This document shows positions 42,216-45,860 of a stretch of 64,000 nucleotides of DNA, one piece after another. The DNA is from Candidatus Moraniibacteriota bacterium. Its GTDB lineage: Bacteria; Patescibacteriota; Minisyncoccia; Moranbacterales; UBA1568. A model generated the notes under the pieces. It had not been told where the DNA came from. It searched no databases and saw only the letters and a program-made list of their open reading frames with translations. Each line of letters opens with the position of its first letter. Position 1 is the first letter of the stretch. A program made the translations under genes and the position numbers. The stretch covers positions 2,255 to 66,254 of the forward strand of contig JBBIRD010000001.1 of the NCBI GenBank assembly GCA_037441965.1, in the 5' to 3' direction.

Positions 42216-42244
42216 TTGACAGGTTCGAAACTACTCTGTAATAT
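42216..42244 (+). promoter_or_regulatory. Consensus rRNA promoter (TTGACA-17-TAATAT) about 380 nt upstream of the 23S rRNA
   Basis: The -35 TTGACA is at 42216-42221, followed by a 17-nt spacer and the -10 at 42239-42244. Confidence 0.6.
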
Positions 42245-42624
42245 AGAGAGTACGAATTGAGAAAGTGCTTTGCAGTACTTTTTTCTTTTCTCAAGAATAT
42301 TCTGTTGATTTTCCTGTCAAGTTATTTGTCAAACAGTTCTGAAGAAATATGTGTTTCTCTTTGTAATGAAGAGGTTCTACAAAGAGCAATATGTATTTCC
42401 GCAGAAGTGCCTTAACAACTTATGTCTTTTTCAAAAGAATCGAAGATTATATGGTAGCGGAAAGTGATCAGATTTTTTTGAGATAGTCTAAATAGAAAAG
42501 GTCAAGCAAATCATAACGAGAAAAAACAGTGCGTCGAATGAGCAAACATTCTTCACTGTTAACCGATTGTCCGTGAGCGTCTTTAGTTTCGATTAGAGCG
42601 TTTGCGGACAAGAGAAAAAAAGAA

Positions 42625-45550
42625 GGTTACTTAACGCATGGTGTGGATGCCTTGACTGAAGCAAGCGATGAAGGACGTAGGAGGCTGCGATAAGCCTCGG
42701 GGAGCTGTCAACCAAGCTTTGATCCGGGGATTTCCGAATGAGGCAACTCTTTCACTTTTTAGTGAAAAACTGTATCTGAATACATAGGGTACAGTAGCAG
42801 ACCCTGGGAACTGAAACATCTTAGTACCAGGAGGAAAAGAAATTAATAAAGATTCCGTAAGTAGTGGCGAGCGAACGCGGAACAGCCTAAACCACCGAGC
42901 TTGCTCGTGTGGGGTTGCAGGGCTTATAGACTCGATTGATCGGGGTCGTCGCATTTTTGTTAGCAAAATGTTTTGGAAAGAACAACCACAGAGGGTAATA
43001 GTCCCGTATGTGAAAACGAAAATGCCACGATGTATAAGTACCTAAGTAGGGCGGGGCTGGAGAAACCCCGTTTGAATCTGGGAGCACTAACTTCCAAGGC
43101 TAAACATTGCTTCAGATCGATAGTGAACTAGTACCGTGAGGGAAAGGTGAAAAGTATCCCGATAAGGGAGGTGAAATAGAACTGAAACTCCATGCTAACG
43201 AAGAGTCGGAGCCCTGTTTATTCAGGGTGACGGCGTGCTTTTTGCAGCACGATCCAACGAGTTAGTTTTACGTGGCTGTCTAAGGGATGACGAATTCCGG
43301 AGACAAAGTGAAAGCGAGCCTTAATAGGGCGAAATAAGAGTCGCGTGGACTAGACCCGAAGCCAGACGAGCTACATATGAGCAGGATGAAGCGTCGGTAA
43401 AACGACGTGGAGGTCCGCACCCACTTGCTGTGCAACTCAAGGGGATGACTTGTGTGTAGGGGAGAAATTCCAATCGAGTTTGGCAATAGCTGGTTCTCTC
43501 TGAAATAGCTTGAGGGCTAGCGTCTTGTAAATTGTATCCGAGGGGTAGAGCTACTGGATGAGAATTCGCGGTTTACCGTAGTGTTTTCAACCAAACTCCG
43601 AATACTCGTGATATGTACCAAGGCAGTCAGTACTCCGGGGCTAAGCTCGGAGCACAAAAGGGAAAAAGCCCAGATCGTCAGCTAAGGTCCCAAAATTTGT
43701 ATTAAGTGGGAAAGGAAGTGAAGACTCTTAGACACTTAGGAGGTTGGCTTAGAAGCAGCAATCCTTTAAAGAGTGCGTAATAGCTCACTAATCTAGAGTC
43801 TTCGCGCCGACAATTTAACGGGGCTAAAATACAATACCGAAGCTACGGACTGTATCGCAAGATACAGTGGTAAGAGAGCGTTCCATATGCGCTGAAGCAG
43901 AAGGGTGACCGACTGTGGAGCGTATGGAAGTGAGAATGTTGGAATGAGTAACCGCAATGAGGGTGAGAGCCCCTCACATCGAAAGTCCGAGGTTTCCTGG
44001 GCCATGGTGATCATCCCAGGGTTAGTCGGTCCTAAGGCCAGGCTGAAAAGCGTAGTCGATGGACAAGAGGTTAATATTCCTCTACTATTTGTATATTCGA
44101 AGGAGAGACGCATCTCTGTACCTTTTGCCCCTTATTGGATTGGGGTTTGGTCTTCGAGGATGTTATACAGGCAAATCCGTATAACACTCATCCAAGAAGA
44201 ATGACGAAGCTTTACTACGGTAAAGTGAAGAAAAGGGAGCGGGGTGCCAGGAAAATCTTCTAAGGTTCGTATACAAGTATCCGTACCGCAAACCGACACA
44301 GGTGGACAGGGCGAGTAGCCTAAGATGAACGGGAGAGAATTCGTTAAGGAACTCGGCAAAAAAGCTAGACGTAAGTTCGCAATATGTCTTGCCAACCGTC
44401 AGGTTGGCCGCAGCAAAAGTTTTCCAAGCAACTGTTTATCAAAAACACAGGTCTCTGCAAACCCGCAAGGGGAAGTATAGGGGCTGACACCTGACCAGTG
44501 CTGGAACGTTAACGGGAGCGGTGCAAGCCAATCCCCGAAGCGCCAGTGAACGTCGGCGATAACTATAATCGTCCTAAGGTAGCGAAATTCCTTGTCAGGT
44601 AAGTTCTGACGCGCATGAAAGGTGTAATGACTTGGAAACTGTCTCAACGAACATCCCGGTGAAATTGCAATGACGGTAAAGATGCCGTCGACCTACAGCT
44701 AGACGAAAAGACCCCATGGAGCTTTACTATAACTTGGTATTGACTTAAAATTTTTGTTGCCTAGCATAGGTGGGACACTATGAAGCACTCTTTCAGGAGA
44801 GTGTGGAGTCATCATTGGAATACCACTCTGCAAAGATTTTAATTCTAACCTACGACCATTATCTGGTCGGGGGACAGTGCCTGGTGGGTAGTTTGACTGG
44901 GGCGGTCGCCTCCTAAAATGCAACGGAGGCGTTTACAAAGGTTCTCTAGGTCCGGATGGAAATCGGGCCGATAGCGCAAAAGCATAAGAGAGCTTTACTG
45001 AAAGACCGATCAGTCGATCAGTTACGAAAGTAGAATTTAGTGAACCGACCATTACTCGTAGGAGTGTGGAAGATCATCAGATAAAAGTTACCCTGGGGAT
45101 AACAGGCTGATCTTGCCCAAGAGTCCATATCGACGGCAAGGTTTGGCACCTCGATGTCGGCTCATCACATCCTGGGGGTGGAGAAGCTCCCAAGGGTTTG
45201 GCTGTTCGCCAATTAAAGTGGTACGTGAGCTGGGTTCAAACCGTCGTGAGACAGGTTGGTTTCCTATCTGCTGTAGGCGTGTGTTGCTTGAGAGAACTCT
45301 TTCCTAGTACGAGAGGACCGGAAAGAACGAACCTCTGGTGTATCTGCTGTTCCGCCAGGAGCATCGCAGAGTAGCTACGTTCGGGTAGGATAACCGCTGA
45401 AAGCATCTAAGCGGGAAGCCAAGCTCAAGATAAGGCAACAGTATCAGTTTACTGATACAAAATTTCCTAGAAGATTACTAGGTTGATAGGCTGCAGATGT
45501 AAGTCCTGAGAGGGATTCAGTCAAGCAGTACTAATAAATTTATTCAACTT
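42625..45550 (+). rRNA. rrl: 23S ribosomal RNA (about 2.9 kb), ends approximate
   Basis: The conserved 5' sequence GGATGCCTTG...GCGATGAAGGACG is present. Internal conserved blocks include the sarcin-ricin loop AGTACGAGAGGACC and the peptidyl-transferase region. The 3' end carries GGTTGATAGGCTG...GTACTAATAAA. Confidence 0.92.
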
Positions 45551-45675
45551 TCTTTTTTTCTAACCTTGTTTTCTTTTCGCAAGAAAAGAATCGAAGTTAC
45601 GGTTAGCAGTGAAGAGTGCTTGTTAAAAGGGGAATCTTATTCTATTATAGATAGACAAATTTGGAGGGGAATGTT

Positions 45676-45787
45676 TCCGGTGCTTCTAGCGTTGTGGACA
45701 CACCTGATCCCATACCGAACTCAGCAGTTAAGCACTTCAGCACCGATGGTAGCCTTTAGTGGCAAGAGTAGGACAGTGCCGGGAACA
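45676..45787 (+). rRNA. rrf: 5S ribosomal RNA
   Basis: CCTGATCCCATACCGAACTCAGCAGTTAAGC...GATGGTAGC is characteristic of 5S rRNA, and it lies about 125 nt after the 23S. Confidence 0.88.
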
Positions 45788-45825
45788 TTCTTCTTCAAAT
45801 TCAAATATTTTTTCATATACAGTCT

Positions 45826-45860
45826 GAACAAGACTGTATTTTTGTTGTTATGTTTTTCAA
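45826..45860 (+). terminator. Rho-independent terminator after the 5S rRNA
   Basis: The ACAGTCTGAACAAGACTGT hairpin is followed by ATTTTTGTTG. Confidence 0.55.

Follow-up and report, generated by a model that had tools for sequence, protein, structure and literature searches.

A 23S-5S rRNA unit unlinked from the 16S rRNA gene in a Candidatus Moranbacteria chromosome, with a predicted promoter and a predicted stem bracketing the 23S rRNA

Introduction

How is a 23S rRNA gene without a 16S rRNA gene in front of it transcribed, and how would its precursor be separated from the 5S rRNA that follows? This question is raised by a locus of a Candidatus Moranbacteria (CPR/Patescibacteria) chromosome lying within a 64-kb stretch of DNA, the whole of which was analysed and is referred to below as the window. 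Based on our observations, we suggest that the region is very probably a single, self-contained rrl-rrf (23S-5S) transcription unit, with the 16S rRNA gene located elsewhere and with the mode of expression proposed below. The window was compared with one genome locus (L004) and 20 metagenome contigs, which together represent nine leader lineages.

Results and discussion

Composition of the rRNA locus

A covariance-model search against Rfam fixed a complete 23S rRNA gene at 42620-45556 of the + strand (RF02541 LSU_rRNA_bacteria, 2590.4 bits, model positions 1-2925 of 2925), the mature ends being uncertain by a few nt, and a 5S rRNA gene on the same strand at 45676-45784 (RF00001, 76.7 bits, full model). 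With its 2937 nt, the 23S is only 12 nt longer than the 2925-position model. In the listed part of the Rfam alignment its largest insertion comprises 13 nt and none of 100 nt or more is present, which agrees with the sequence-only reading, where the gene was described as being of standard length and free of a large intron. Intron- or insertion-bearing rRNA genes have been noted in CPR bacteria (Brown et al. 2015, cited in 10.1101/705046), and close 23S relatives of the window gene carry insertions, whereas the window gene does not: they occur in the 23S of L073, L078 and L080, and 23S sequences 96-98% identical to that of the window contain insertions of ~170 nt and 795 nt, the latter encoding a LAGLIDADG-like ORF.

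No SSU rRNA was detected by Rfam on either strand of the window, i.e. within 42.6 kb upstream and 18 kb downstream of the 23S, and the universal 16S 515F motif was not found there even when three mismatches were allowed. The only tRNA genes of the window are those for tRNA-Leu at 36606 and 52400, and a spacer tRNA is absent. Searches with universal 16S motifs and ARAGORN likewise revealed neither a 16S motif nor a tRNA upstream of the 23S in the related contigs, and Rfam identified no 16S upstream of the 23S in L076. The initial suggestion that the rRNA operon is unlinked, with no 16S gene or spacer tRNA preceding the 23S, therefore holds; a 16S gene directly upstream, which would contradict it, was looked for and is missing from the 42.6 kb on that side. 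In a survey of CPR genomes, rRNA genes are considered unlinked when more than 2000 bp separate the 16S and the 23S (PMC8172020). Here, a stretch of this size around the 23S contains no 16S, and genes that do not belong to an rRNA operon lie upstream, namely parA, parB and a membrane/TPR gene.

Neighbouring genes and their conservation

The gene immediately upstream (39479-42016, + strand) encodes a polytopic membrane protein of 845 aa whose C-terminal part contains TPR repeats. About ten hydrophobic 19-mers are found within the N-terminal 500 aa and weak TPR Pfam matches at residues 665-792, consistent with its earlier description as a protein-coding membrane/TPR gene. Its homologues (49-75% identity; assigned by best match to the window proteins compared) precede the 23S in every relative with enough upstream sequence. 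All but one of the contigs contain this upstream gene. The gene is outside the rRNA unit, of which it is the conserved upstream neighbour. In L004 two further ORFs are inserted between the TPR gene and the 23S, the promoter described below still being placed directly upstream of the leader.

On the other side, the next gene (45931-46764) encodes a 277-aa hypothetical protein (hyp277). The order TPR protein - rrl - rrf - hyp277 - FtsW - SecG - SBP5 is conserved in independent metagenome contigs, which argues strongly against misassembly. The association with parB is less widespread, as parB and the 23S lie within 10 kb of each other in only one of 15 Moranbacteria-type loci (L004), so this linkage is not general. 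The assignment of the window to Candidatus Moranbacteria is based on relatives of ParB: those with 51-69% identity and informative names come from Moranbacteria, Patescibacteria or Minisyncoccota MAGs, while five others are titled 'uncultured Bdellovibrionales'. Two nuclease genes were also noticed near the rRNA unit, one for RNase J (52639-54603) and one for an RNase T-family exonuclease (34549-35220).

Promoter and terminator

A sigma-70-type promoter is predicted at 42216-42244 (+ strand), comprising the -35 hexamer TTGACA (42216-42221), a 17-nt spacer and the -10 hexamer TAATAT (42239-42244), which ends 376 nt before the Rfam start of the 23S. The sequence-only reading had placed a perfect consensus promoter about 380 nt upstream of the gene. 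The motif and its position are as described, but "perfect" applies to the -35 hexamer alone, since the -10 hexamer matches at four of six positions and the promoter as a whole at ten of 12. From these elements we infer a transcription start near 42251. The pattern TTGACA-17-TA(A/T)NAT is kept in all nine leader lineages, while the spacer between the hexamers diverges.

The motif is also unevenly distributed. TTGACA-N17-TAWNAT occurs four times in the window, always on the + strand, against 0.24 occurrences expected (17-fold enrichment). Besides the site before rrl, one precedes tuf (EF-Tu), overlapping the final codons of the EF-G ORF, one precedes a tRNA-Leu gene, overlapping those at the end of a folD-like ORF, and one lies ~500 nt upstream of parA, in front of a short ORF of 66 aa. 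By analogy with the antisense RNA of Helicobacter pylori, a promoter-like match on the minus strand of the leader (42537-42510, nine of 12 positions) was also considered, but was rejected since the relatives do not share its -10.

The rRNA unit would be closed by an intrinsic terminator at 45817-45849 (+ strand), consisting of a 9-bp hairpin, which forms in the minimum free energy (MFE) structure, followed by TTTTTGTTGTT. Equivalent hairpins with T-runs are present in L076 and L078, where the stem bases are changed. Immediately beyond, at 45870-45878, the extended -10 element TGCTATAAT of the hyp277 gene probably marks a separate downstream transcription unit; it is kept at the same relative position as TATGCTATAAT in L076 and TATGCTATACT in L073. 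Together, the conserved promoter hexamers, the terminator after the 5S and the extended -10 of the next gene support the view, already put forward in the sequence-only reading, that the 23S-5S pair has its own promoter and would form its own transcription unit.

Organization of the leader

The nine lineages have in common not only the promoter but also, within the leader, a boxA-like element, a hairpin and the 5' arm of the stem described below. Near the predicted 5' end of the transcript, a hairpin formed by AAAGTGCT and AGTACTTT, with TTGC as its loop and a T/C-rich run behind it, can be drawn at 42262-42292 (+ strand). A similar 5' hairpin with a T-run was found in L074, L072, L073 and L082, though not in L076 or L083. 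One possibility is that this weakly supported hairpin acts as a protective 5' hairpin.

The boxA-like element, GTGCCTTAACAAC, is located at 42407-42419 (+ strand). Its core, TGCCTTAACAA (42408-42418), begins 164 nt after the -10 hexamer and ends 123 nt before the stem, and the exact 11-mer occurs only once in the 64-kb window. The core resembles the E. coli boxA, TGCTCTTTAACAA, than which it is two bases shorter. In the nine lineages the element is conserved above the flanking leader sequence, and it belongs to the best-conserved leader block, ATTTCCGCAGAAGYGCCTTAACAAY, which shows few changes in eight of them. In L081, a member of the L080 lineage, ~130 nt lie between TTTCCGCA and the CCTTAACAA core. 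Given its conservation and sequence, we regard the element as a candidate loading site for the rRNA antitermination complex. In a search for a second copy of the leader cassette, such as might precede the 16S, a conserved leader 19-mer had no match in viral contigs.

Directly 3' of the boxA-like element, RNAalifold predicted a conserved hairpin at 42424-42488 (+ strand). For seven lineages, 25 of the 31 leader pairs predicted fall within this hairpin, as do ten of the 11 pairs with compensatory double changes. A helix TTTCCGC/GCGGAAA around the boxA-like element, spotted by eye, was not chosen by RNAalifold.

The leader prompts a more speculative idea, to which we assign a rather low probability, namely that its ~370 nt (5' hairpin with U-run, boxA-like block and strongly covarying hairpin) might do more than serve antitermination and processing in a generic way, and might form a module for regulation or assembly, specific to the lineage, that matches the 23S-5S output to that of the unlinked 16S. 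Such a module could operate through the same promoter/boxA/hairpin cassette placed before the 16S, or the leader could serve as a cis chaperone or as a sensor of free ribosomal proteins.

A long-range stem around the 23S rRNA

Co-folding of the leader with the trailer paired 42541-42565 with 45600-45624 (both + strand), 24 of the 25 positions being matched. The sequence-only reading had noted that 42551-42565 is complementary to 45600-45614 with one G-U pair, which is exactly what the sequence reads. The complementarity is real, but its length was underestimated, as the predicted duplex extends from the 15 bp proposed to ~25 bp. A contiguous 19-bp core, with 42547-42565 as its 5' strand, is also paired in the MFE structure of the full 3.6-kb precursor, i.e. 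in the context in which failure to pair would have spoken against the stem. The 5S is left outside, the 3' strand ending at 45624, 51 nt before the 5S start at 45676, so that the stem encloses the 23S and excludes the 5S, as had been suggested.

The leader/spacer duplex has an energy of -68.5 kcal/mol. Not one of 300 mononucleotide shuffles attained this value; they gave -49.0 +/- 4.1 kcal/mol. Across five distinct flank sequences, 97.4% of the cells of the stem were paired, against 32-53% in slid-register controls, and five of 23 stem pairs showed compensatory changes on both sides, most of these double changes coming from one lineage (L083/L091). L004 was left out of the comparison of the 3' strand, its 23S being incomplete in the locus. 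The stem is set back by ~45-55 nt from the mature 23S ends in the window and by 7-56 nt among relatives. These folding and covariation results support a predicted RNase III-type bracket stem around the 23S. By analogy, we infer RNase III as the nuclease, as well as the sites at which it would cut.

Several local structures accompany the stem. Between its 5' strand and the 23S, a hairpin at 42567-42611 (+ strand; co-fold and MFE) has the conserved base TTGTCCG...CGGACAA and a tip which varies yet remains self-complementary in L072, L073, L004, L076 and L083; the hairpin is absent in L080. A second hairpin (45562-45598, + strand; co-fold) separates the 3' end of the 23S from the downstream strand of the stem and is present in L073 and L078 and absent in L076 and L083. 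In the full-precursor MFE structure, 42613-42628 pairs with 45546-45561 to extend helix 1 of the 23S, and 45660-45675 with 45784-45799 to extend helix I of the 5S by 16 bp, giving the 5S its own predicted pre-5S stem (45660-45799, + strand). The 5S flanks are kept in L076 and L078. An outer A/T-rich pairing in the leader/trailer co-fold (42508-42524 with 45840-45856), which would enclose the 5S, was rejected as a low-complexity artefact, since it does not form in the MFE structure of the full precursor, where 45841 pairs with 42256, and since it involves the T-run of the terminator.

Proposed expression of the unit and alternative explanations

We propose that transcription would start at the strong sigma-70-type promoter and pass through the ~370-nt leader, where the boxA-like element and the adjacent hairpin would probably load the rRNA antitermination complex. 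It would then continue through the 23S and 5S and stop at the intrinsic terminator. Pairing of the leader segment with the spacer segment would generate the ~25-bp duplex enclosing the 23S only, and cutting of this duplex by an endonuclease specific for double strands, most probably RNase III, would release the pre-23S. Release of the 5S would be a separate step involving the 16-bp stem formed by its flanks, and final trimming would take place at the helix-1 extension.

It could be argued that the 23S-5S pair is mainly co-transcribed by read-through from the membrane/TPR gene (or from a parAB-TPR unit), TTGACA-17-TAATAT being incidental. All genes around the rRNA unit are co-oriented, the -10 hexamer matches at only four positions, and the search for intrinsic terminators gave none on the + strand from the end of the TPR gene (42016) to the promoter (42216), so some read-through into the rRNA unit is possible. 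As the main route, however, it seems quite improbable: both hexamers are kept in nine lineages while the spacer and the surrounding intergenic sequence diverge, L004 retains the promoter directly before the leader despite its two extra ORFs, and the enriched motif sits before other highly expressed genes of the window. Even less credible, to the point of being almost negligible, is an assembly or binning artefact, i.e. a chimeric contig or a collapsed operon that conceals a normal 16S-23S-5S arrangement in the true genome. Metagenome assemblies do often break or form chimeras at rRNA regions, but the same junctions (TPR gene - promoter/leader - 23S, and 5S - terminator - hyp277 - FtsW) recur in 21 contigs from many samples, which represent six or more distinct lineages (49-75% protein identity), and the promoter, boxA-like and stem elements of the leader are those expected of a primary 23S transcript.

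The identity of the nuclease admits somewhat more doubt. The flanking duplex might be real without being an RNase III substrate, serving instead as a folding or assembly clamp, with cleavage by a Mini-III-type enzyme at the helix-1 extension or processing by RNase J or exonucleases as further options. Mini-III acts at the 23S ends in Firmicutes, and in the window the second duplex (42613-42628 with 45546-45561) lies directly at these ends. No rnc gene was found in a scan of 30 of the 59 window ORFs of at least 120 aa, which took in both strands but not the ORFs of ribosomal-protein size between 18 and 31 kb, and the RNase J and RNase T-family genes mentioned above are nearby. However, rnc is near-universal in bacteria. 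A conserved duplex of ~25 bp set back from the mature ends corresponds to the canonical layout for RNase III, as experiments on the 23S-5S precursor of an unlinked locus have demonstrated (PMC6582327). We therefore consider these options unlikely and favour cleavage of the bracket stem by RNase III.

Relation to known systems and significance

Unlinked rRNA genes are described as typical of most CPR lineages (Brewer et al., 10.1101/705046) and were found in 27 of 34 complete CPR genomes (Lui et al. 2021, PMC8172020). The locus described here resembles these cases in having a 23S-5S pair separated from the 16S by protein-coding genes, in its small-genome CPR host and in its conservation within the clade. 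In the available portions of these surveys (10.1101/705046; PMC8172020), loci are classed by inter-gene distance only, and a promoter, boxA-like element, leader hairpin or bracket stem is not described there.

A close parallel is that of Helicobacter pylori, in which RNase III cleaves a stem around the 23S in an unlinked 23S-5S precursor (Iost et al. 2019, PMC6582327). Both units are stand-alone 23S-5S pairs preceded by a leader of their own, and in both the 23S is surrounded by a long stem, with a distinct structure close to the 5S (PMC6582327), although the two organisms belong to different phyla and their flanks share no sequence similarity. Cleavage, together with a cis-antisense RNA over the leader, was demonstrated experimentally in H. 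pylori (PMC6582327), whereas the Moranbacteria unit is known from its sequence alone.

A similar succession of elements, from the promoter through boxA with its hairpins and a bracketing leader/trailer duplex to a separately processed 5S and a terminator, is found in the unit analysed here and in E. coli. The E. coli rrn operons have a strong promoter, boxA with adjacent hairpins, RNase III stems around both the 16S and the 23S, a separately processed 5S and a terminator. The 5' strand of the E. coli 23S stem and boxA lie in the 16S-23S spacer, whereas here the stem strand and the boxA-like element are placed in the leader of the primary transcript, directly after the promoter.

The arrangement is already common in CPR bacteria and its processing logic is canonically bacterial, so that known facts are unchanged. 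What the locus offers is the comparatively supported anatomy of a stand-alone CPR 23S-5S unit, with promoter, boxA-like site, hairpin, bracket stem, 5S stem and terminator. It is useful for the annotation of promoters and rRNA precursors in Moranbacteria, and bears on how organisms with unlinked rRNA genes keep the stoichiometry of their 16S and 23S rRNAs.

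An unlinked 23S-5S rRNA unit and its relatives

Rfam covariance models placed a complete bacterial 23S rRNA gene at 42620-45556 (+; 2590 bits, model positions 1-2925 of 2925) and a 5S rRNA gene, covering the full model, at 45676-45784 (76.7 bits). At 2937 nt the 23S gene exceeds the model by 12 nt, and its largest insertion is 13 nt in the portion of the Rfam alignment shown; the sequence-only reading was therefore right to call it of standard length and free of introns. Its claim that neither a 16S gene nor a spacer tRNA precedes the 23S was likewise borne out. Rfam found no small-subunit rRNA within the 64-kb window, the universal 16S 515F motif was not found there with up to 3 mismatches allowed, and the only tRNAs detected in the window by ARAGORN, tRNA-Leu at 36606 and 52400, do not adjoin the rRNA genes. 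The upstream neighbor (39479-42016, 845 aa), earlier guessed to be a membrane/TPR gene, indeed encodes about ten hydrophobic segments and weak TPR matches at the C-terminus.

A 23-nt signature taken from the 5' end of the 23S picked out 20 contigs in a metagenome scan, and one genome locus (L004) carries the 23S downstream of parB. Counting the window, they fall into nine distinct leader lineages, whose 23S identities are 88-98%. In the related contigs, which reach as far as about 5.7 kb upstream of the 23S, neither a 16S motif nor a tRNA was found on that side, and in contig L076 Rfam recognized LSU and 5S only. The gene order membrane/TPR protein, 23S, 5S, a 277-aa hypothetical protein (hyp277), FtsW, SecG and solute-binding protein is conserved, with identities of 48-81% for the syntenic proteins and 49-75% for the TPR protein. 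This conservation rules out misassembly as the source of the 16S-less arrangement, and shows the unlinked organization to be ancestral to this clade. L004 differs in having two additional ORFs, of 225 and 576 aa (L004:15279-17749), between the TPR-protein gene and the 23S promoter; promoter and leader still lie directly upstream of the 23S.

The ParB encoded 3.3 kb upstream served as a lineage probe against GTDB representative genomes. Relatives with informative names (51-69% identity) were MAGs labelled Candidatus Moranbacteria/Moraniibacteriota, Patescibacteria or Minisyncoccota, and five further ones were titled "uncultured Bdellovibrionales". Also in the window are the str operon (S12, S7, EF-G, EF-Tu), LeuRS, parAB, FtsW, RNase J and further housekeeping genes, and a series of short ORFs in one orientation at 18-31 kb could, by size and position, be the ribosomal-protein cluster. 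Its genes are nearly all on the + strand, GC skew is positive throughout and GC content is about 38%; this is an unremarkable stretch of a CPR bacterium's chromosome. Elsewhere in it, a giant ORF (831-7313, +, 2160 aa) is built almost wholly from repeats of the FG-GAP/VCBS type (E = 1e-173 for 19 FG-GAP stretches) and presumably encodes a surface protein; after it, at 7404-11886, come genes of the sulfatase/phosphodiesterase family. In an 857-aa ORF (59372-61945, +) a radical SAM domain is joined to a PQQ/beta-propeller region at the C-terminus, an unusual fusion.

Promoter, leader and terminator

The promoter proposed before the 23S, read from the sequence, comprises a -35 TTGACA (42216-42221), a 17-nt spacer and a -10 TAATAT (42239-42244). 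Its location and perfect -35 hexamer stand, but "perfect consensus" was an overstatement, since the -10 matches at only 4 of 6 positions (10 of 12 overall). Across the nine leaders TTGACA-17-TA(A/T)NAT is kept, followed in most lineages by ATAGTACGA or a near variant; conserved hexamers around a freely varying 17-nt spacer are, at the level of sequence, a classical promoter footprint. Generalized from the relatives' promoters, the motif TTGACA-N17-TAWNAT was found four times in the window (0.24 expected), always on the + strand: before the 23S (42216-42244), before the EF-Tu gene tuf (16433-16461, exact, overlapping the last EF-G ORF codons), before tRNA-Leu(CAA) (36555-36583, exact, overlapping the last codons of a folD-like ORF) and, about 500 nt ahead of parA, in front of a short ORF of 66 aa (36962-36990, exact). 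Its enrichment and positions suggest that this motif is the organism's genuine housekeeping promoter consensus, and a sigma-70 consensus very similar to that of E. coli seems likely for this CPR genome. No intrinsic terminator was found on the + strand between the TPR gene and the promoter (42016 to 42216), and some read-through transcription from that gene into the rRNA unit may occur.

In the nine-leader alignment, discrete conserved blocks stand amid otherwise divergent sequence. After the promoter come a 5' hairpin with a T-run, a boxA-like block, a hairpin, the 5' strand of the bracket stem, another hairpin and an A-rich helix-1 strand. The best-conserved block, ATTTCCGCAGAAGYGCCTTAACAAY (42395-42419), has a core, TGCCTTAACAA, that resembles the rrn antiterminator boxA (in E. 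coli, TGCTCTTTAACAA) and is a candidate for this element. RNAalifold predicted 31 pairs in the leader segment, 25 of them inside a conserved hairpin at 42424-42488; double compensatory changes affect 11 of the 31, ten of these within the hairpin. The hairpin that follows the 5' stem strand is conserved at its base but variable at its tip, and is absent from contig L080.

The short, A/U-rich 5' hairpin with its T/C run (42262-42292, +) occurs in most lineages, being conserved in several, not all, relatives. It lies about 12-40 nt past the predicted transcription start, ahead of the boxA-like site, and resembles a weak terminator or else a hairpin protecting the 5' end.

The terminator hairpin and T-run downstream of the 5S are found again in L076 and L078, where bases of the stem differ, and the extended -10 of hyp277, TGCTATAAT (45870-45878), is conserved.

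The stem bracketing the 23S

The complementary segments that had been quoted, CTTCACTGTTAACCG (42551-42565) facing CGGTTAGCAGTGAAG (45600-45614), lie where reported. The complementarity is real, but the stem was reported too short: 24 of 25 positions pair between 42541-42565 and 45600-45624. This duplex forms when leader and trailer are co-folded, together with a 23S helix-1 extension (42613-42625 with 45549-45561) and local hairpins on the 5' side (42567-42611) and the 3' side (45562-45598). Co-folding in the full precursor, on which the sequence-only reading had staked its stem beforehand, was also observed: in the MFE structure of the predicted 3600-nt transcript (42251-45850) the segments pair, retaining a contiguous 19-bp core (42547-42565 with 45600-45618). 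The same structure keeps the helix-1 extension (42613-42628 with 45546-45561) and the terminator hairpin (45817-45839), and extends 5S helix I by 16 bp (45660-45675 with 45784-45799).

The leader/spacer duplex energy was -68.5 kcal/mol; 300 mononucleotide shuffles gave -49.0 +/- 4.1, and not one was as low. Across five distinct 5'/3' flank sequences, 97.4% of cells are paired in the true register, whereas control registers slid by 1-3 columns fall to 32-53%. Both sides have changed in 5 of 23 pairs, as where CTTCACTG/CAGTGAAG of the window is replaced by TTCCACCG/TGGTGGAA in contig L083.

Insertions and nested 5S genes in relatives

The window, L076 and L083 are without the 23S insertions described here. 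In 23S genes 96-98% identical to that of the window, insertions of about 170 nt and about 795 nt sit at fixed sites, after window-23S positions 715 and 1961 respectively (L073:5575-5746 and 6988-7782; L078:2379-3178). The longer one encodes a 177-aa ORF (L073:7189-7722) with a LAGLIDADG-like motif, GYVDGEGCF. The 23S of L080 (L080:637-6950) has at least ten insertions, which lengthen the gene to about 6.3 kb. No Rfam intron family scored above threshold.

The window's own 5S is simple. In two related Moranbacteria lineages the 5S is nested (L073:8878-9159, also the near-identical contigs L079, L084 and L087; L080:89-398, minus strand): the outer gene is split into a 5' half (1-48) and a 3' half (55-109), and between them lies a complete inner 5S, the copy called by Rfam, set off by about 20 nt from the 5' half and about 50 nt from the 3' half. 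Long complementary arms flank the inner gene. Both lineages share one insertion point, after CCGAA(C/T), which makes an assembly artefact unlikely. To our knowledge, no such 5S-within-5S arrangement has been described.

Predicted expression and processing

The best-supported reading is that a primary 23S-5S transcript follows the canonical bacterial scheme. Transcription of the unit would start at the strong promoter, the boxA-like site and adjoining hairpin would recruit Nus-type antitermination factors, and RNA polymerase would read through the 23S and 5S and halt at the intrinsic terminator. An endonuclease specific for double strands, most probably RNase III, would then cut the approximately 25-bp leader/spacer duplex to yield pre-23S, the 5S would be released from its own flank stem, and the ends would be trimmed at the helix-1 extension. 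None of the 30 ORFs scanned, from the 59 in the window with at least 120 aa, was rnc. In the likewise unlinked 23S-5S unit of Helicobacter pylori, RNase III cuts the stem that encloses the 23S and also a separate structure ahead of the 5S (PMC6582327); cleavage was shown experimentally there, whereas here it is predicted.

That the conserved leader cassette is a lineage-specific device for keeping 23S-5S synthesis in step with the distant 16S seems rather improbable to us. One survey showed unlinked rRNA genes to be widespread and phylogenetically conserved, naming Patescibacteria among the largely unlinked clades (10.1101/705046). The unlinked 23S-5S is thus expected for the lineage, and its description is a correct account of something expected. 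Our analysis adds the putative anatomy of the unit in a Moranbacteria clade: a conserved promoter, a boxA-like block, a covarying leader hairpin and a covarying bracket stem, which the available portions of two surveys (10.1101/705046; PMC8172020) do not mention. This added detail conforms to the textbook scheme.
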